Below, one piece after another: positions 4,763-13,311 of a stretch of DNA of 16,601 nucleotides. The notes under the pieces are model-generated. The model was not told where the DNA came from. It saw only the letters and a program-made list of their open reading frames with translations, and searched no databases. Every line of letters starts with the position of its first letter. Within the stretch, counting starts at the first letter, position 1. The position numbers and the translations under genes are program-made. This stretch comes from a virus. Location: UHGV virus genome UHGV-0088365, one strand, 5' to 3'.

Positions 4763-5140
4763 ATGGCTGCAACCGAAGCAGAAGCTCGTTCATACCTTCC
4801 TGAAGAACCCTGCATTTTTGCCGCACGCTTCACTCTTGATGCGATGGAGATCCTAAATTACTGGAATCTTCTTGTTTGGTGCTTTTCCAGCTTTGTTCAG
4901 GAAAGACTTTATAACTTTTATTGGGTATTTGTAGTGATGCTGATACTGGCATTCCTCACAGCCGGAATTGGCCCGTGGATTGCCTCATTTATCTGGGCGT
5001 TCATGTATAATAAATATTTCACCGTAAATAAGATAAAACAAGGCTTCATTTTTGCTGGTTCTCACACAGAAAATGAGTTGGCTGCTAGCAAGCTAGGATT
5101 GTCATTAAATCAAAACAACTGCAAAACTATTACCGAGTAA
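4763..5140 (+). CDS. Putative small inner-membrane protein (two predicted TM helices); start uncertain (4763 or 4844)
   Basis: ORF-track ORF; hydrophobic segments LLVWCFSSFV and YWVFVVMLILAFLTAGIGPWIASFIWAFM. The body is AT-rich relative to flanks. No clear Shine-Dalgarno at either candidate ATG. Confidence 0.45.
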   Translation: MAATEAEARSYLPEEPCIFAARFTLDAMEILNYWNLLVWCFSSFVQERLYNFYWVFVVMLILAFLTAGIGPWIASFIWAFMYNKYFTVNKIKQGFIFAGSHTENELAASKLGLSLNQNNCKTITE

Positions 5141-5147
5141 AGCCAAA

Positions 5148-5171
5148 AAGCAGGCTTAATAGTAAGCCTGC
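5148..5171. terminator. Hairpin GCAGGCTT-aatagt-AAGCCTGC between convergent genes; intrinsic terminator for the minus-strand gene, possibly bidirectional
   Basis: Perfect 8-bp stem with 6-nt loop. On the minus strand it is followed by TTTTTGGC; on the plus strand it is preceded by AAAAA. Confidence 0.55.
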
Positions 5172-5179
5172 TATGTCAA

Positions 5180-6013
5180 TCACGAATCTCTCTGACAATT
5201 CAGAAACATAAACGCCCGCTTGTCTGTTAAATCCGTAACATAATACTCTCTCATGCCTGTAGGTTTTATTCTACGAGCATATACAAACTTATGAACTGGT
5301 TGTTTTTCCCCATAACTTACATCAGTCCTAAATTCATCAACCACGCTACCATCTTTTTCAGTTTCCTTTCTCACTAGCTGATTTTCTAATACAGGCTTTG
5401 ATTCGTCCATGCCACTAAAAGCATCCTGACCTGTGCTGTTGCCTCGGTTTCCGCGTGGCAAATCCCATGAAAAATAAGTGCCATAGTCAGTAATCACACG
5501 ATCCCATGTTCCGGAATCCCCCATATAGTTAGAACGCTCCCCCTTGTAAGTTACAGCCACCTTACAGGCATACGTTTCACCATTATTTTTTTTATCATGT
5601 CCAGCCATGCTTGCAGGAGTTGCAGGGGAATTATGAATAGATGCGCTTACATCATCCTGCGTTAATTCCTCAACTGGAGCAAATTCATATATGGGTGTGC
5701 CGAGGCTATTTAAATATAACTTATATCTAACCCTAAGCGCACTTCCATCAGAAAATTCATACGTTCCCAGACATTGGAGCTTATTTTTTTCTCTTATCTC
5801 ATTGATCTGATTATAAGCATCAATTACAGAGATTGCTTCCTGATCGTCCTTCAGCAGTTCATTATAATCATCGATTAACATCTGTCTGGTTTTAGGGGCA
5901 TTACAGTCAATTTTGCTAAAATCATAAGCAAAGGCAAATGTGGGAACAGAGAGAGCAACAACAGTAGCAAGTATTGTTGAGGAACATCTTTTTCCATTTT
6001 TTATAAAAAACAT
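5180..6013 (-). CDS. Secreted or periplasmic protein of unknown function with Sec signal peptide, about 277 aa
   Basis: ORF-track ORF 5180..6091 trimmed to the ATG at 6013 (GGAG 8 nt upstream), giving MFFIKNGKRCSSTILATVVALSVPTFAFA-YDF: basic n-region, hydrophobic core and AFA cleavage-type motif. Mature part is rich in Gly, Tyr and Trp. AT-rich. No family recognised. Confidence 0.7.
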   Translation of the reverse strand: MFFIKNGKRCSSTILATVVALSVPTFAFAYDFSKIDCNAPKTRQMLIDDYNELLKDDQEAISVIDAYNQINEIREKNKLQCLGTYEFSDGSALRVRYKLYLNSLGTPIYEFAPVEELTQDDVSASIHNSPATPASMAGHDKKNNGETYACKVAVTYKGERSNYMGDSGTWDRVITDYGTYFSWDLPRGNRGNSTGQDAFSGMDESKPVLENQLVRKETEKDGSVVDEFRTDVSYGEKQPVHKFVYARRIKPTGMREYYVTDLTDKRAFMFLNCQRDS

Positions 6014-6305
6014 TTCATTAACTCCATACTTTACCATCTTAGCCGCGAGCGCGGTCCCTAAAACCCTTAACTTCACTACACCGTCCTTCATGTAAACAAA
6101 ATGAGGTTTTATGTTATAAAAACAATCAACTTCATCAACATGATTTAGGCCAAGTTTCGGTCAAATAATAAAATCCTCAAAAAGTGGTTGACACTATTCT
6201 GGAAATCACAAACTGCACATAATCCATCGCGCTAACGGCTCCCGTTGAAGGTTCTTTTGACGATTAACTTTCAGCCGAAGCGCGGTAGGGAGTCATAACG
6301 CCAAA

Positions 6306-7013: not shown

Positions 7014-7148
7014 TCACATTAGTAGCTTTGTTAACTCCCTCAATACCAGGTAGAAGAGTAACAAAAATATTGACGCCAGTATTTGCGTGGTCAATGAAGC
7101 GTTCATAAACAGATCAATTAGCATTAATAATTCGAAGATAACATCCAT
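7014..7148 (-). CDS. Putative small hydrophobic peptide, 44 aa
   Basis: Not in the ORF track. ATG at 7148..7146 with GGAG about 8 nt upstream; translation MDVIFELLMLIDLFMNASLTTQILASIFLLLFYLVLRELTKLLM; its stop abuts the stop of the convergent 217-aa gene. Confidence 0.3.
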   Translation of the reverse strand: MDVIFELLMLIDLFMNASLTTQILASIFLLLFYLVLRELTKLLM

Positions 7149-7341
7149 GTCATTCACTCCGTTTAATTTTTAATCTAATGCCAGCAAATGAAGCTGGCCC
7201 CCGCATAAAGATTAATGAAAGTCACTTGTCACCAGTGAGGGGATTTATGAACCACATCCCCCTGAACTGGTGGCCTGTCTGTTTCTCGCATTTCACACCC
7301 TGCATACAGTTTCCCCCAGGTTATGACTGAGAGGCTTTGTT

Positions 7342-7671
7342 ATGGGCTATAGCAGACTCGACGATAGGTACATTGAAGACGATATTTTTCGTGCGCTGTT
7401 TCACCAGGAAATGATTAAGAGGGTATCGGAGTATCACTCTGATAATTTCCAGTACACGATAAAGATTGATGAAGTATATCGTTCAGACCTTGCAGCCTAC
7501 AGGGCGTATGGCAATGCAGATTTGCGCTGGGTATTCCGGGTGCTGGTGGGCCATGAGTCAGAAATGGAAGAAATGCCCGCAGGGACCACGTTAACTCTTC
7601 CTGATGTGGCATGGCTGAGGAACAAGATCCGTGATTACGCAAGCGCGGAACCGGAGATAGAAAATGCCTGA
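7342..7671 (+). CDS. Hypothetical protein, 109 aa, with weak resemblance to the LysM-like phage tail protein X family
   Basis: ORF-track ORF; its stop overlaps the next start by 8 nt. The segment YGNADLRWVFRVLVGHESEMEEMPAGTTLTLPDV loosely resembles the P2 gpX pattern (...YG...V..VL..N.G......LP.GT.v.LPDV) as I recall it; weak. Confidence 0.6.
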   Translation: MGYSRLDDRYIEDDIFRALFHQEMIKRVSEYHSDNFQYTIKIDEVYRSDLAAYRAYGNADLRWVFRVLVGHESEMEEMPAGTTLTLPDVAWLRNKIRDYASAEPEIENA

Positions 7672-8857
7672 TTTCCTGAAAAACCAGGATGGGCGCTATA
7701 TCACTGACGGCCTGTCCTCTAAGGACTTCACGCGTTTATTCGACCTTATCAGGAAAGAACAAACCCGTAAGCGCCGACAAGCTCACCGGACGCTGACGCC
7801 AGGTAGACTGAGGAACAAATCCGCCGAAGATATTCTCAAGTTAGGGAAGAAAAAAGGCGGCACGTTCTTCACGCGAGACGACCTGAAAGGTTTCGAAAAG
7901 CTACGGAGTAAAACGCGCGAAAAATATGACAGCAAGACGGCTGGCATCACATACGCCCAGCTGGTGGCATCCAGCCAGGCAATCGATATTAAGCGTGCAA
8001 ATAACGCCGTGGATGACGGATCTGGTATCAAAAGAGCTACACCCGTATCTCTTCGCCACAATGTGATTAATATCCGCGTAGAAGCATCGGATATATCCGT
8101 CCACCAGCACCATATCGTCCGGATACGCTTTGAAGAATGGGATCAGATGGTTGATGACATCGCAGAAGACGATAAATCAGCTCTCAAAATCACTAAATCA
8201 CTGTGCGCCGGGCGAGTGTCTTTCGATTGTGACTGTGGTCGTCATCAATACTGGTATCGTTACATCGCCACTGCGGGTAACTTTGCCCTGGCACCGCCAA
8301 AAGAATACGCCTATCCAAAAGTTCGCAACCCGAAGCTGCAAGGCGTCGCCTGTAAACACGTGATCCACTCAATGACGCGGTTACAGTCCGCCAGTTGGCA
8401 AATGAGTATTGCTCGTGCGCTACAAAAGGCTGCAACGCAAATTGCATTTGGTGACGATCGCCGCCGTACAACCAAACACTTCTCAAAAGAAGACGAGAAG
8501 GAGTTTAATCGCAATCGTAGCAGTAAAACGAACGTTGAAGCCGCCAAACGCGAATGGAGGCTCTATCAGAAGCGCCAGGCAGCTTTAAGTACAAAACTGG
8601 CAAAGGACAACGGCAAGATCGACAAACTACGTGACCAATTGACCAAGGCCAGAAAGTTGTCAGATGCACAGAAAAAACGGGCGGCAGCAAAAGAAGCGGC
8701 CTTGCAACGTGAGAAACAGAAAAACAAGGAGCTTCAGCAACGCCTTGCCGATCAGTTCGCACTGAAGAAGCAGGCGTTCATTGATGCGCTTGTCATGGCT
8801 GGAACACCACCAGCACAAGCTGAAAAAATGTTCATGGAGTATGTAAAAAAAGCATAA
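7664..8857 (+). CDS. Basic protein with SWIM-type zinc finger (CxC...CxH) and long C-terminal K/R/Q/A-rich coiled coil, 397 aa
   Basis: ORF-track ORF. FDCDCGRHQYWY...(about 40 aa)...GVACKHVIHS fits the SWIM CxCxnCxH signature; residues about 280-397 are predicted coiled coil (e.g. KRAAAKEAALQREKQKNKELQQRLADQFALKK). Confidence 0.75.
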   Translation: MPDFLKNQDGRYITDGLSSKDFTRLFDLIRKEQTRKRRQAHRTLTPGRLRNKSAEDILKLGKKKGGTFFTRDDLKGFEKLRSKTREKYDSKTAGITYAQLVASSQAIDIKRANNAVDDGSGIKRATPVSLRHNVINIRVEASDISVHQHHIVRIRFEEWDQMVDDIAEDDKSALKITKSLCAGRVSFDCDCGRHQYWYRYIATAGNFALAPPKEYAYPKVRNPKLQGVACKHVIHSMTRLQSASWQMSIARALQKAATQIAFGDDRRRTTKHFSKEDEKEFNRNRSSKTNVEAAKREWRLYQKRQAALSTKLAKDNGKIDKLRDQLTKARKLSDAQKKRAAAKEAALQREKQKNKELQQRLADQFALKKQAFIDALVMAGTPPAQAEKMFMEYVKKA

Positions 8858-8866
8858 ACCACACAT

Positions 8867-8900
8867 AGCCTAGTAGTTTATGCTGGGCTTTCATTTTTTT
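8867..8900 (+). terminator. Intrinsic terminator after the SWIM-protein gene
   Basis: Stem AGCCTAG / CTGGGCT (7 bp with one G-U pair), 9-nt loop, followed by TTCATTTTTTT. The stop of the convergent minus-strand gene (8891) lies inside the T-run. Confidence 0.5.
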
Positions 8901-9619
8901 GAAAGATCAATTCCAGTATTATCAAACAAACTGGAAATATCAGACACCAATTTATTAAAATGCTTGTCATCATTATAGAATGATGTGCTTTTTATAGCGA
9001 CTATAAAATCACATAAATCTTGCGGAGATTCAATGCTAACCCCCTTATTTTTATATAGTTCAATAATACTGCCAACATCAGTATGCAATAGTTTTATCGC
9101 GCCACAAATTTCTCGCTGTTTCGTAACCAAGTCATTAAGTTTATTTTCATTTTCATCTAAGATTTGTTTTGAATATTTAGCGTCATTGGTTGCTTGATTT
9201 AACTTTGTTTTCTTTCTTTGCAATTCTATTCTTTTATCATAATCAGCAACTTCATCTAAATATCTTATTTCAGTGTATAATTTACTTGTTAGCTTAGATA
9301 TCTTCAGTGTGAGAACAGGAGCTAACACAGATGCAAATACTCCATAAATAAATGGGATTACAACGTGATAAACCCACGGGGATACAATCCAATTATCAAT
9401 GAACGGGACATTACCACCAACAGAAACAATAGATAATGTATATAGGATGTCGTCCTTTGACTTTAATATAATTAAAATATCCTTCCAGTTAAAAATTAGA
9501 AAAGAAATGACAACATATGCAAAAACCTTGTTAAATATTTTATCTTTTATTATTTCAGAAAATGATTTTAGTTCTGTTTCATTTATAGACGGATTATCTT
9601 TAACTTTTTCTGACATCAT
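8891..9619 (-). CDS. AT-rich membrane protein (two predicted TM helices) with coiled-coil-rich C-terminal domain, 242 aa; candidate abortive-infection or exclusion-type effector
   Basis: ORF-track ORF; ATGATG start at 9619 with AGGA 7 nt upstream. Predicted TM segments FAYVVISFLIFNW and WVYHVVIPFIYGVFASVLAPVLTL; K/E/N-rich helical C-terminus. Markedly AT-rich. No family recognised. Confidence 0.75.
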   Translation of the reverse strand: MMSEKVKDNPSINETELKSFSEIIKDKIFNKVFAYVVISFLIFNWKDILIILKSKDDILYTLSIVSVGGNVPFIDNWIVSPWVYHVVIPFIYGVFASVLAPVLTLKISKLTSKLYTEIRYLDEVADYDKRIELQRKKTKLNQATNDAKYSKQILDENENKLNDLVTKQREICGAIKLLHTDVGSIIELYKNKGVSIESPQDLCDFIVAIKSTSFYNDDKHFNKLVSDISSLFDNTGIDLSKK

Positions 9620-9640
9620 AGCTTATCCTGATTACTTTTA

Positions 9641-9841
9641 TTATGGATAGTTAAAAGATTCAACAGGTGATGGTGGTTGAATTGGGTAATGTTTCTTCTC
9701 GTACTCCTCAATGAGAAGACTCATAACCTCAAAGAAATCACCTTCCGGAGTATTCATTTCCGGTTCGTTATCGAACATCGGTTCGACCGCACGCAGTGCG
9801 GCCTCATAATCTTGTTCTGTACGGATAGGTTTAATGTTCAT
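9641..9841 (-). CDS. Small protein resembling only the N-terminal (non-HTH) domain of YgjM/HigA-type antitoxins, 66 aa
   Basis: ORF-track ORF; MNIKPIRTEQDYEAALRAVEPMFDNEPEMNTPEGDFFEVMSLLIEEYEKKHYPI follows the pattern of the N-terminal domain of E. coli K-12 HigA (...NEEQYTQALELVDHLL.NDPENPLLDLV...ITAWEE...) as I recall it, but there is no HTH domain. No Shine-Dalgarno sequence is evident. Confidence 0.5.
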   Translation of the reverse strand: MNIKPIRTEQDYEAALRAVEPMFDNEPEMNTPEGDFFEVMSLLIEEYEKKHYPIQPPSPVESFNYP

Positions 9842-9854
9842 TAATTACAAAGGA

Positions 9855-9885
9855 AAGCCCACTTGCTAAGTGGGCTTTTTGTATG
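9855..9885. terminator. Hairpin AAAGCCCACTT-gct-AAGTGGGCTTT followed by TTGTATGTGTTTT; terminator, strongest in the plus orientation
   Basis: Perfect 11-bp stem with 3-nt loop between the higA stop (9898) and the 66-aa ORF start (9841). The T-run is on the plus strand; the minus orientation has only TTTCCTTT. Confidence 0.5.
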
Positions 9886-9897
9886 TGTTTTACTATA

Positions 9898-10236
9898 TCA
9901 GGCTGCTTTTTTATTCAGGTTCCGCTGAGAAATAAATTTTTCAGCAGTATTGATACGACTTAACTCTTCCTGAACGCGCATATCATTTTCGACTTCCCAC
10001 AGATCTACTGCGGTCTGAAGATTAATCCAAAAATCTACAGAAGTATCGAATGCTTTTGCCAGGCGATATGCCATATCCATCGTTAGCTTACGATTGTTAT
10101 TAACAAGAGCACTTACGGTGTTACGATGAACATGAAGTATTTCTGCTAACTCGTTGATCTTCAGCTCTAACGGCTCCAGGTATTCGTACAGCAGGATATC
10201 ACCTACGGTCGTCGGTTTTCTGGTTGCCTGTTTCAT
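9898..10236 (-). CDS. higA: HigA-family antitoxin (XRE-type HTH), 112 aa
   Basis: ORF-track ORF; PTTVGDILLYEYLEPLELKINELAEILHVHRNTVSALVNNNRKLTMDMAYRLAKAFDTSVDFWINLQTAVDLW matches the HigA/VapI HTH antitoxin pattern; it lies downstream of a HigB-like toxin gene (toxin-first order typical of higBA). Confidence 0.8.
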   Translation of the reverse strand: MKQATRKPTTVGDILLYEYLEPLELKINELAEILHVHRNTVSALVNNNRKLTMDMAYRLAKAFDTSVDFWINLQTAVDLWEVENDMRVQEELSRINTAEKFISQRNLNKKAA

Positions 10237-10306
10237 TTTTTGCCCTTACTAGCGTGCGTATTAAGTGGACTCTGGTCAGAACCCGGTCCGTAACCGGGTA
10301 TCTGTT

Positions 10307-10609
10307 TTAGTATTTGTGAGGGTCGAGATACAAGTCCTCGGCCTTTCCGTTAACCCACTTAAAAATTAACCTATATTGCTTATTCACCCTTACTGATGAA
10401 TAGCCATTTAGCTTCCCTGACAGTTCCTCATACCGATTACCTGGTGGTGATCTTAAATCCTTACAGGTAGTTGCGGCATTGATAATGTCCAACTTCCGTG
10501 ACAATGTCATATGAATATCAGGAGGTATCTTTCTATGTGGTGTTGAAAATTCAAAAAAATCATCAAGCCACGCATCCCTGAAATCCTTTATGTTAATTTT
10601 TTTGGTCAT
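10307..10609 (-). CDS. higB: HigB-like toxin (plasmid-maintenance killer protein, RelE/ParE superfamily), 100 aa
   Basis: ORF-track ORF; C-terminal half GNRYEELSGKLNGYSSVRVNKQYRLIFKWVNGKAEDLYLDPHKY follows the HigB pattern (...G.R.G.YS.RVN..YRL.F...NG.A..L...DYH) as I recall it; upstream GGAGGA. Confidence 0.8.
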   Translation of the reverse strand: MTKKINIKDFRDAWLDDFFEFSTPHRKIPPDIHMTLSRKLDIINAATTCKDLRSPPGNRYEELSGKLNGYSSVRVNKQYRLIFKWVNGKAEDLYLDPHKY

Positions 10610-10654
10610 TAGTCATTTGATCCTCCGTGATGATTACCGAATGCCATAACTATA

Positions 10655-10682
10655 GCGCACCGTTGCACTGTGCGCAAGTGCA
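10655..10682. promoter_or_regulatory. Nested palindromes (GCGCAC...GTGCGC and TGCACT-N7-AGTGCA) in the divergent promoter region between higB and the rightward operon; putative operator
   Basis: Read directly in GCGCACCGTTGCACTGTGCGCAAGTGCA; toxin-antitoxin promoters are typically autoregulated through palindromic operators. Confidence 0.4.
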
Positions 10683-10771
10683 TTTTATGAATTCCCCCTC
10701 CTTCATCCAAAATCACAATCTCCAGAAAATCTTCCTTTCGATACCTGACAGATCGACCTTTGAGGATGCTT

Positions 10772-11563
10772 ATGGGCCGTTTTGACGAATGGTTTGCTGA
10801 CGATGCAAACCTGGCAAGTAAGGAGTCAGAACATGACAGCACGCAGAGAGAAACGCCAGCGCCGATTGAAGCGAATGCAGGAGGCGCGCCGGAACATGGC
10901 AATACCGGTTCGGATTCATTCAGCATTCTGGAAGAGCAACCCGCCGCCCAAGCTGATAGCCATGATAATTTTGCTGATAGCAACGGTGGCCTTACTCCGG
11001 ATGCTGGCGAATCAGATATAGCCATACTTCCATCTTCCCTGGCTGGCAGAGAACCGACTCCACAGTTAAAAGCACGCTATAACGGGCATAAAGCCTTTAA
11101 CGACCAAATCCGCGCAGACTGGATGCTGATTATTGAATCCAGCCCAGACGCGTTTCAGGCTCTCTTATATCGACCAGATGTTGGCACATATGGGGTAGTC
11201 AGCGACGAAACAGGAGAAGAGTCATTCACTGAACTGGATAACAACCAACGCGAACTGACTTACCAGGAACCTGAAATCGTTTATGTGCTGGATAACCCTG
11301 ACGGGCGTGACTCTTTCCATGCGATTGACGCAGACGGTGAGCAGGATGGCTTAACCGATGATGTTCTGATTCTGCGTATTGCAGCAAATAACGTCCCCGT
11401 CGGCTCAATTCTTGAATGGAATGAAGAGATGGTAAACGGCGTAGCGCGCCGCTGGTGGTACGTGCACCGTATTTTTAGCTACGGCACACAGCATGTTGGT
11501 TCGCTTTACTACTGCATACCTGCCAGGAATTTTGATACGACTCAAAACGGAGTGATCGAATGA
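10772..11563 (+). CDS. Hypothetical protein with acidic, low-complexity N-terminal half, 263 aa
   Basis: ORF-track ORF 10760..11563 trimmed to the ATG at 10772 (GAGGA 5 nt upstream); ATGA overlap with the next gene. No family recognised. Confidence 0.7.
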   Translation: MGRFDEWFADDANLASKESEHDSTQRETPAPIEANAGGAPEHGNTGSDSFSILEEQPAAQADSHDNFADSNGGLTPDAGESDIAILPSSLAGREPTPQLKARYNGHKAFNDQIRADWMLIIESSPDAFQALLYRPDVGTYGVVSDETGEESFTELDNNQRELTYQEPEIVYVLDNPDGRDSFHAIDADGEQDGLTDDVLILRIAANNVPVGSILEWNEEMVNGVARRWWYVHRIFSYGTQHVGSLYYCIPARNFDTTQNGVIE

Positions 11564-12330: not shown

Positions 12331-13311
12331 GTGGCCCAGGAGTTACAACAATATTTTCTACAGTCAGTGCTCATTAACGATAACAAAGTGCCACGAGACT
12401 GGATTTTTACCGCAGTATATGTAGAAAAAACCAGCCTCAAAGCCCCTTTGCTAAAACTGGAAATTCATGACGCTACCGGCACCGTAATTGATGACTGGAA
12501 AGCCAAATACGGTGCATCGCTGGTGGCTGAAATGGGCGATCCAAACGGTAATGCAGGCACTTTTAAAACAGATTTCTTTGTTACGTCTGCAATGCTGGCT
12601 GGTGATGTTGTTACCGTTATTGCTGTCAGTGAAGACGTGCGCAGGTTTAAGATCCCCTCCCCGCGCACAAATTTACATACCAACAAAACACCAGACGCTA
12701 TATTCAAGGCATATTCCGGCAAACTTAAAATTACCAGCAGCGTGCTAAAACGCGCAGTTACATATCATCTGAATGCCGGTGACAAACCGTCAAAAATGCT
12801 TTCGGAGATAGCGCGAGACAAAGGTGCATTGTGTTGGGTATGTCGGGGGGAATTTAACTTTTATACCCTGGCTGATCTGATGAAGCAAACGCCATCATTT
12901 ACCTACGAGGGGAATAACCCTAAAGCAGAATACACTTTGTCCAAAATGCGCCTACTCCAACAGGAACATGCGACAACAGCAAAGAATCAATATCGTTTTG
13001 TTGGGTATTCCATGACCGATGGCTACGTCGAATATGGCGATAGCTCACTCCCAGTGCGTTATATATCCGACTCTGATATGGAAACTCTTCGCAATATGCA
13101 GCTGTCTCTCGTCCCCAAAATGGATATAGAAGTCGCAGGCAATCCTGATATAAAACCGGGGATGGTAATAGAGATTATCGTATACCGCTATGACCAGGAA
13201 AACCGCATTGATGAATCAATGCCCCGTAAGCTGATAGTAAAAAATGTTGCGCACTTTGAGGACCGAGTAGGCTACACAACACGAATGATATTGGGAGTGC
13301 CTAACAAATGA
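12331..13311 (+). CDS. Hypothetical protein, 326 aa (GTG start); possibly a baseplate-hub-like protein given its position before the spike-like gene
   Basis: ORF-track ORF; GTG start 3 nt after the upstream stop; ATGA overlap with the downstream spike-like gene. The hub assignment is from gene order only, not from recognised sequence motifs. Confidence 0.65.
   Translation: MAQELQQYFLQSVLINDNKVPRDWIFTAVYVEKTSLKAPLLKLEIHDATGTVIDDWKAKYGASLVAEMGDPNGNAGTFKTDFFVTSAMLAGDVVTVIAVSEDVRRFKIPSPRTNLHTNKTPDAIFKAYSGKLKITSSVLKRAVTYHLNAGDKPSKMLSEIARDKGALCWVCRGEFNFYTLADLMKQTPSFTYEGNNPKAEYTLSKMRLLQQEHATTAKNQYRFVGYSMTDGYVEYGDSSLPVRYISDSDMETLRNMQLSLVPKMDIEVAGNPDIKPGMVIEIIVYRYDQENRIDESMPRKLIVKNVAHFEDRVGYTTRMILGVPNK

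Follow-up and report, generated by a model that had tools for sequence, protein, structure and literature searches.

Described systems closest to the locus

PD-lambda-2 is a three-gene HigB-like defence system whose B component (about 400 amino acids, aa) combines a HigA-like helix-turn-helix (HTH) domain with an ImmA/IrrE-type peptidase (PMC9519451). It is one of several described systems with which we compare an accessory island of the virus genome UHGV-0088365, whose full stretch of 16,601 nucleotides (nt) is called the window below. The island lies on the minus strand between plus-strand tail genes and consists of four co-directional genes arranged head to tail: higB, higA, an open reading frame (ORF) of 66 aa, and a gene for a 242-aa membrane protein. 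The preliminary description of this DNA took the last two for a novel two-gene cassette, a small regulator with a membrane effector, standing back to back with higBA, an orientation that the head-to-tail order contradicts. The comparison leads elsewhere: the 66-aa ORF is a truncated antitoxin gene, here called HigA2, whose HTH half was lost on recombining in a different downstream allele, and the 242-aa gene, a single gene confined to prophages, is hypervariable, is under selection and neither co-varies with nor depends on the neighbouring antitoxin genes. What remains of the proposed module is an ordinary pseudogene and an uncharacterised, unusually polymorphic single gene.

The likeness to PD-lambda-2 lies in a match of the 66-aa ORF to the PADLOC model PD-Lambda-2_B and in the ancestral cassette of the island, which likewise had three genes with a HigB-like gene first. 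However, a peptidase domain is missing here, and the third gene encodes an unrelated membrane protein instead of a P4-antitoxin-like one. None of the four island proteins matches the PADLOC models for the A or C component, and membership in PD-lambda-2 was rejected because the match to the B model covers only positions 1–65 of 402 (E 2.5e-16). The E. coli HigB(YgjN)/HigA(YgjM) pair resembles the locus in that the phage D6 counterpart of the 66-aa ORF, orf72, aligns over both HigA domains and follows a HigB gene of family PF09907 (here HigB2) in relatives. In the window, by contrast, this toxin is absent, the HTH half of the antitoxin is deleted and the translation signals supplied by the toxin gene are gone, which leaves a remnant and not a module. 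The neighbouring pair at 10609..9898, correctly called canonical in the preliminary description, is a full member of the Rts1/Proteus type of HigBA (PF05015 and TIGR02607), which is reported to serve post-segregational killing in D6-like plasmids (PMC6799933). This pair is a neighbour with its own terminator, and its sequence is unrelated to HigB2/HigA2.

For the membrane protein, the nearest comparisons are the temperate-phage inner-membrane exclusion and abortive-infection proteins P22 SieA/SieB, T4 Imm, lambda RexB and HK97 gp15, each likewise a single small or medium-sized membrane protein encoded by a variable, AT-rich gene outside or antisense to the late operons. No sequence or fold similarity of the 242-aa protein to any of these was detected, and none of them is known to combine a hairpin of two transmembrane (TM) helices with a helix of about 110 residues. 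The 2-TM effectors of CBASS, retron and related defence systems (for example PADLOC PDLC00702) share a two-helix membrane hairpin as a possible membrane-disrupting effector, and one distant family member of the 19 scanned matches this model weakly (E 4e-4); here, in contrast, no sensor or enzyme gene is associated, and the family has a long cytoplasmic extension of its own. Finally, P2-like phages carry AT-rich morons at the old, tin, Z/fun and orf30 sites. One relative of the 242-aa protein (P0017) recalls these as a lone, AT-rich gene, antisense between tail-completion and baseplate genes, but it is not homologous to Old, Tin or Fun in PADLOC and PHROG scans.

The 66-aa ORF is a truncated HigA2 antitoxin gene

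The two genes and the gap between them are laid out as follows; the ORFs, the spacer and its AGGA were all given correctly in the preliminary description, as a reading of the sequence confirms.

9641..9841, minus strand: HigA2 stump of 66 codons, consisting of 60 native codons (9841..9662), 6 junction codons and a stop (comparison with D6)
9620..9640, minus strand: 21-nt spacer of incoming, non-D6 DNA, with an AGGA Shine-Dalgarno sequence at 9629..9626, 6 nt before the ATG of the 242-aa gene (sequence read)
8891..9619, minus strand: gene for the 242-aa membrane protein ("Mem") (ORF list; match to phrog_8191)

D6 orf72 encodes a 119-aa protein with an HTH; it is full-length in D6 and in about 42 E. 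coli plasmids and aligns with E. coli HigA (YgjM; PDB 5IFG and 5YCL) over the N-terminal part and the C-terminal HTH (E 8e-8). At the DNA level the window is 99.5% identical to D6 from position 12500 down to 9660 and unrelated beyond, and because the homology stops at this point, the 66-aa ORF can be resolved into 60 HigA2 codons, 6 junction codons and the first stop that follows. Its residues 1–60 are 97% identical to the start of orf72 (58/60; E55Q, I60V), and codons 61–119 of HigA2 are deleted in the alignment with D6. Where D6 has 309 nt, the window has 109 nt; gone are the part that encodes the HTH, the hairpin downstream of it and the opening codons of the membrane-gene allele that D6 carries.

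In addition to the PD-Lambda-2_B match, the ORF matches phrog_1373 over positions 1–63 of 166 and phrog_10398 over 66 of 66 positions, and it has no HTH Pfam match. The earlier observation that it resembles only the front part of a YgjM/HigA-type antitoxin thus stands, but the label "dimerisation-like" for this part is probably wrong: in Vibrio cholerae HigA2, toxin neutralisation needs no more than the N-terminal segment, and it is the HTH that dimerises and binds DNA (PMC5416850). By analogy with such modular HigA antitoxins, the stump would keep the toxin-binding half. Of the three features that define a YgjM-type HigA, it has the N-terminal toxin-binding segment and lacks two, the HTH and an upstream cognate PF09907 HigB.

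Most RefSeq records examined name the ORF "helix-turn-helix domain-containing protein", after exactly the part that is missing, and this public annotation needs correcting. A few newer records annotate a pseudogene without its C-terminus, and in NZ_CP173462 the ORF carries a pseudogene flag from NCBI's annotation pipeline (PGAP). It should be regarded neither as a partner protein nor as part of a defence system.

Among complete E. coli genomes, the stump is present in about 55 plasmids and the HTH-encoding half in 42. The ORF is intact in nearly all plasmids with the window-type membrane-gene allele; in one of them (L017, NZ_CP134379; L numbers denote the loci compared) it is split by an IS3 element, and the 242-aa gene there is intact. 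Variation within the stump is limited to one synonymous change, too little to show selection. The stump was found only with the window-type allele (9 of 9 complete IMG/VR loci), from which we infer that the truncation was a single event, a by-product of bringing in that allele. Reading of the sequence revealed no Shine-Dalgarno or purine-rich ribosome-binding site ahead of its ATG, and a hairpin at 9852-9880, which scores as a terminator in both directions and is also found in D6 and L005, ends 10 nt before this ATG. The stump is probably a non-functional relic.

Turnover of the toxin-antitoxin genes

The ancestral order PF09907 HigB, HigA2, membrane gene is retained in L003, L004, L040-42 and L047, and L045 has a divergent HigB/HigA pair (about 26% identical) in the same arrangement. 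In relatives HigA2 follows the PF09907 HigB gene with a 4-nt gap, and in L003 and L004 its Shine-Dalgarno sequence, GGAG, lies inside the end of the toxin gene. In D6, L005 and the window, the PF05015 higB-higA pair together with its terminator occupies exactly the place of the lost PF09907 toxin gene, so that HigA2 is left without toxin, promoter or Shine-Dalgarno sequence. The orphan has since decayed at least three separate times, by deletion in the lineage of the window, in L044 (3537-3918) by a frameshift that leaves ORFs of 61 aa and 86 aa, and by the IS3 insertion in NZ_CP134379. The locus is therefore a worked example of toxin-antitoxin turnover, in which a toxin gene was replaced, its antitoxin orphaned and the orphan lost in independent decays. 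We regard this account of the anatomy and history of the locus as highly probable.

L044 additionally carries, at 4811-5290, an extra 159-aa gene without Pfam or PADLOC match between the membrane gene and the gene 25 homologue, which indicates that the island site accumulates further cargo.

The membrane gene is hypervariable and selected

The guanine-plus-cytosine (GC) content is 29.1% in the 242-aa gene, 41.8% in the 66-aa ORF, 41.6% in higA, 38.3% in higB and 49–50% in the tail genes. Only the 242-aa gene is thus compositionally foreign, the 66-aa ORF resembling the higBA genes; the earlier statement that the pair is much more AT-rich than its flanks is true of the former and not of the latter. 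In each of 13 contexts across relatives, the GC content of the family gene is 10–18 points lower than that of its flanking DNA.

In the closest elements the flanking tail genes are about 96–100% identical, and alleles of the membrane protein share 37–60% identity. The comparison is given below for four loci, with genes and 242-aa protein compared with the window proteins and full-length HigA2 compared with D6 orf72.

D6: genes 26, 25, 7 and 24, 98.5–100%; HigA2, 100% (reference); 242-aa protein, 60%
L003: genes 26, 25, 7 and 24, 98.7–100%; HigA2, 97.5%; 242-aa protein, 42%
L004: genes 26, 25, 7 and 24, 99.3–100%; HigA2, 97.5%; 242-aa protein, 45%
L005: genes 26, 25, 7 and 24, 79–96%; HigA2, 97.5%; 242-aa protein, 38%

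HigA2 stays at about 97% where the membrane protein ranges over 37–60%, so the two do not co-vary. Between allele classes, the synonymous substitution rate (dS) is saturated (>1) and the ratio of the non-synonymous rate to it (dN/dS) is 0.18–0.48, which indicates old, protein-constrained lineages rather than decaying DNA. Within the window-type class, the corresponding ratio of polymorphisms (pN/pS) is 0.46–0.78, from 7–9 non-synonymous and 3–4 synonymous differences, too few to interpret, versus 0.07–0.16 for the tail genes. The differences within this class (L015, L016, L017 and P0001) cluster in residues 66–107, that is, in the outside loop and the second hydrophobic helix (S66F, I74F, S80P, Y84C, V86F, I91V/G, V102I and K106T).

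A census of alleles and toxin-antitoxin types took in 23 IMG/VR loci, every one of them located between the gene 7 and gene 25 homologues. HigB2-HigA2 accompanies the class with 37–39% identity in L040-42 and L047, PF05015 HigBA plus HigA2 accompanies it in L005 and L044, and the 45% class is likewise seen with both arrangements; since the same class meets different arrangements, alleles assort independently of the neighbouring toxin-antitoxin type. In the types with full-length HigA2, homology breaks 22–49 nt after the HigA2 stop, just past a conserved hairpin.

The 242-aa ORF is intact in the window-type loci examined, and tblastn finds it at full length and at least 95% identity in 69 PLSDB records. 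Elsewhere the gene can be broken: in L046 (3977-4707) it is split into ORFs of 147 aa and 83 aa, and in many Klebsiella plasmids it is cut by IS903B. The N-terminal part of the split gene in L046 is L003-like and the rest resembles the L005 class, a pattern that suggests recombination inside the gene between allele classes. The gene makes a tractable single-gene candidate: several alleles exist naturally in backbones that are otherwise isogenic, and the phage-plasmids that carry them are common among E. coli, Salmonella and Klebsiella of clinical and livestock origin.

Architecture and family of the 242-aa protein

Hydropathy places hydrophobic segments at residues 32–52 and 82–106, and an AlphaFold2 model built from 30 sequences has helices at 12–43, 45–53, 58–65, 81–191, 199–211 and 219–234. 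These features bear out the two TM helices and the long coiled-coil-rich domain of the preliminary description. Helix 81–191 is predicted to be continuous over about 110 residues, so the second hydrophobic helix would run directly into a stalk of about 85 residues, followed by a small helical C-terminal domain. The invariant or near-invariant residues N44, W45, S54, K55, P89, G93 and P101 all lie in or beside the hydrophobic segments, and the stalk is the least conserved part of the protein between allele classes.

The protein matches phrog_8191 over 242 of 242 positions (E 5e-121), a family related to phrog_13369 and phrog_4780, all three of unknown function; 19 diverse relatives match phrog_8191 in 19, phrog_13369 in 17 and phrog_4780 in 16 cases. 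The family is small, with 50 representatives at E ≤1e-3 among 1.84 billion in a full HMMER search; a word-indexed homologue search returned only 7 proteins and a profile search of genome contigs only 2 loci. The 242-aa protein has no match in Pfam, NCBIfam, PADLOC (PADLOC-DB 2.0.0) or PDB and no fold match, only a sub-threshold match to the BRE1 coiled coil in the Pfam, NCBIfam and PADLOC scans; those of the 19 relatives yielded scattered coiled-coil matches (such as ZapB, LmuB and JetC), each in one member. Its place outside any named family, as the preliminary description had it, is thus upheld by the Pfam, PADLOC, NCBIfam and PHROG scans, and the homology to a holin, lysis, structural or named defence protein that would have overturned that description did not emerge from the profile scans. 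In particular, no holin, spanin, lysis or structural match was found for the family in Pfam and PHROG, and the ORF list of the window contains no co-directional lipoprotein ORF embedded in or adjacent to the gene. An identity as spanin or holin was rejected on these grounds (no family match and no o-spanin-like ORF) and because of a P2-like context with a separate holin and LysC.

Relatives in other elements

Family members occur in several contexts apart from the island. In L013, a distant D6-like element, the gene stands alone between the gene 7 and 25 homologues, without a toxin-antitoxin module. In a Klebsiella P2-like prophage with its own holin, LysB-position and LysC genes, P0017 (L018-20) is encoded alone and antisense, flanked by the tail-completion and baseplate (gpV) genes. 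Other members lie at accessory ends of prophages, near umuC, Bro-N and gtrABC (L021), beside an integrase (L023), or near umuDC and an insertion sequence (IS) element (L024); the L008 member belongs to an Enterobacter chromosome, where the 660 bp examined upstream contain no HigA gene. A distant clade (P0031, 237 aa, 22–26% identity; L010-L012 and L014, about 5001-5714) is found directly downstream of TacA-TacT, whose toxin is of the GNAT type, and a 68-aa ORF, in Citrobacter, E. coli and Salmonella elements of about 95 kb that resemble phage-plasmids; here, for a second time, the gene adjoins a toxin-antitoxin module, of another type. The neighbours of the members in L044 (159 aa), L018 (247 aa) and L010 (68 aa) gave no informative family matches.

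A 1.6-kb cassette of HigB, HigA (139 aa) and membrane gene, with traces of genes 7 and 25, is present in the Klebsiella IncFIB/IncU plasmids L006 and L007 and in a Leclercia chromosome (L009). It has escaped from a Klebsiella-type D6-like phage-plasmid (L045) into large virulence-type plasmids and a chromosome. We considered these copies as independent evidence for a three-gene unit and rejected them as such, because all of them trace back to the gene 7/gene 25 site of a Klebsiella-type D6-like element. The family gene is present in D6 and in no other of 50,697 isolated phage records; P1 lacks it.

Possible functions of the membrane gene

We consider the best overall explanation to be that the HigA2 stump stands next to a standalone, prophage-expressed membrane factor for exclusion or abortive infection, and give this a probability of roughly 55%. 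The gene shows the hallmarks of conflict-related prophage morons: it is AT-rich, antisense to late genes, hypervariable and confined to prophages. Because of these hallmarks, and because the protein belongs to no named family, exclusion or abortive infection is our best guess for the single gene, but this functional class is tentative, and we would put it somewhat short of even odds. Expression of the 242-aa protein would come from the prophage, and its two-helix hairpin would hold it in the inner membrane, with the N-terminus, the long coiled-coil stalk and the C-terminal domain facing the cytoplasm. On its own it might protect the lysogen against other phages, through either superinfection exclusion or abortive infection; the conserved membrane hairpin could be the anchor or the effector, and the variable cytoplasmic part could determine specificity. 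A more specific proposal, that these are a new family of single-protein inner-membrane coiled-coil factors that exclude or abort phages, with at least five ancient allele classes at a fixed site that are shuffled by recombination just upstream of the start codon and serve as specificity cassettes under balancing selection in phage-phage competition, is somewhat more speculative, and we regard it as possible but less likely than not. If the protein does block phages, it would add a new membrane-protein family to the exclusion and abortive-infection repertoire of prophages, and the gene could affect host range in phage therapy.

Several observations weigh against this explanation. A promoter scan of the window found no sigma-70 promoter above shuffled expectation upstream of the 242-aa gene, and its expression in the lysogen is therefore assumed. 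The AlphaFold2 model is mediocre (pLDDT 72.8, pTM 0.30), and the likely N-in/C-in topology, with a loop of about 28 residues outside, has the positive-inside rule as its sole basis. A functional link with toxin-antitoxin modules is possible, as HigBA always adjoins the gene in D6-like elements apart from the distant L013, and TacAT adjoins it in another phage-plasmid clade. Full-length orphan HigA2 differs between D6 (L001:3983-4342) and L005 (2059-2418) by 8 synonymous and 3 non-synonymous changes, a pN/pS of 0.10 (p ~5e-4 against neutrality by our own binomial estimate). Given this purifying selection on the orphan, HigA2 may once have served a function of which the stump still retains a part. 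Lastly, an allele is detectable in about 102 non-Klebsiella PLSDB plasmids, compared with 115 that have the gene 25 protein at ≥90% identity (about 89%); so constant a presence is unusual among dispensable morons, and the gene could have a part in the biology of the element itself.

That last frequency is one reason to consider a function in the life cycle, as a spanin-like or lysis-timing membrane protein, an accessory to the tail or to DNA delivery, or a membrane tether of the plasmid prophage. In D6-like as in P2-like elements, the gene sits within clusters of tail and baseplate genes, and its membrane anchor and coiled coil loosely recall i-spanins. Yet it runs antisense to the late operon at 17–20 GC points below it, is absent from P1 and from every isolated phage but D6 in the 50,697 records, is accompanied by no lipoprotein ORF, and coexists with a holin, LysB-position and LysC genes in the P2-like prophage; the split in L046 and the IS903B truncations in Klebsiella plasmids also argue against such a role, and allele identities of 37–60% beside tail genes at 96–100% would be odd for a structural partner. 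We consider a life-cycle function quite unlikely. About as doubtful is the suggestion that the stump acts as a miniature antitoxin against the HigB2 of competing D6-like plasmids. About one-fifth of the related E. coli plasmids do carry HigB2 and a HigA2 that is 89–91% identical over the first 65 residues, the N-terminal segment of V. cholerae HigA2 neutralises its toxin by itself (PMC5416850), the ORF is intact in nearly all window-type plasmids, and the orphan HigA2 has its low pN/pS between two toxin-less lineages. Full-length orphan HigA2 may accordingly be an anti-addiction antitoxin against rival plasmids that bear HigB2, or a regulator, but recombination import from toxin-bearing lineages could also explain the pattern. 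The stump itself has no Shine-Dalgarno sequence, has a terminator directly upstream and varies by a single synonymous change, too little to show selection on it; orphan HigA2 decayed independently in L044 and L017, and the structure match is to E. coli HigA only and not to VcHigA2.

Of the explanations that tie the membrane protein to its neighbours, one makes it the third, accessory component of a HigB2-HigA2-based defence system, similar in logic to PD-lambda-2 or to toxin-antitoxin-chaperone systems; the window would then be a degenerate version with just the third gene surviving. The order PF09907 HigB, HigA2, membrane gene recurs in several D6-like lineages, even with a HigB only about 26% identical (L045, L006 and L009), the 1.6-kb unit has also reached IncFIB plasmids of Klebsiella and the chromosome of a Leclercia, the distant clade lies directly downstream of TacA-TacT, and three-gene HigB-like defence systems do exist (PD-lambda-2, PMC9519451). 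All HigBA-linked cases, however, trace to one site in one group of phage-plasmids, where membrane-gene alleles and toxin-antitoxin types assort independently. A hairpin and T-run separate HigA2 from the membrane gene in D6 and L003, the commonest variant has an intact membrane gene without HigB2 or the HTH, and lone members are found in L013, L018, L021, L023, L024 and L008, so we judge this tripartite arrangement unlikely. The original proposal, in which the 66-aa ORF is an antitoxin-like or regulatory partner controlling a toxic membrane effector, could draw on two co-directional ORFs 21 nt apart, each with a full-length PHROG family, in an arrangement shared by about 55 complete E. coli plasmids. 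But the smaller ORF is a truncated HigA2 behind a terminator and without a ribosome-binding site, flagged as a pseudogene by PGAP and split by IS3 in L017 beside an intact 242-aa gene. HigA2 is conserved at about 97% against 37–60% for its supposed partner, and family members occur without such a neighbour in at least five other prophage contexts. Of all the alternatives, we find this one the hardest to credit.

Host element and remaining features of the window

A 2.1-kb region containing the locus is 100% identical to E. coli plasmids of about 90 kb and 90% identical to phage D6, and each of the 102 matching places in 5,426 complete E. coli genomes lies on a plasmid. According to the D6 annotation, the genes that flank the island are homologous to P1 genes 25 and 7 and belong to the series mat-26-25 / 7-24-6-5, and the remainder of the window (a Ref-like endonuclease, tail and baseplate genes, and DNA methyltransferases) fits a P1/D6-like phage-plasmid. 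The window thus derives from a D6-like phage-plasmid, with the accessory island antisense between the homologues of tail genes 25 and 7. The remaining features around the island are as follows.

7664..8857, plus strand: tail protein, P1 gene 25 homologue, conserved left flank of the island (phrog_1722; D6 annotation; 96–100% aa identity across D6-like loci)
8867..8889, plus strand: terminator-like hairpin and T-run between the convergent gene 25 homologue and 242-aa gene
9852..9880, no strand assigned: GC-rich hairpin with T-runs on both strands, likely the higBA operon terminator (terminator scan)
9898..10236, minus strand: HigA antitoxin, Rts1-type, HTH_3, 112 aa, intact neighbour (TIGR02607, E 7.9e-30; PF01381)
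10307..10609, minus strand: HigB toxin, RelE-like, 100 aa, intact neighbour (PF05015, E 4.4e-35)
10760..11563, plus strand: tail protein, P1 gene 7 homologue, conserved right flank of the island (phrog_1906; D6 annotation)

An Rfam scan and a repeat search of 8500-11000 revealed no RNA family and no meaningful repeat; the hairpin at 9852-9880 gave sub-threshold Rfam matches (Trp_leader and RefA9) that are not meaningful. Two promoters picked by eye, TTGAAT-17-TAAAAG (about 9664-9636) and, for higBA, TTGCGC-17-TATAGT (10677-10649), fail the criteria of the scan and are not claimed.

Killing systems of two kinds, phd-doc and higA-higB, are reported from D6-like plasmids (PMC6799933). In L015 (4871-5442; NZ_CP032875) a further RelE/ParE-HigA pair, each member about 93 aa long, lies between the gene 26 and mat homologues, so that toxin-antitoxin genes have inserted at more than one site in the tail-gene region. 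This pair is found in some window-type plasmids and is absent from the window (7014-7341).

The window also contains a second AT-rich stretch at 4800-6200 (GC 0.35–0.41), with a minus-strand ORF of 303 aa at 5180-6091 (phrog_13054, unknown function). Its D6 counterpart is annotated as similar to P1 simB, a superimmunity accessory gene, and the ORF is likely another lysogeny-expressed gene near the island.

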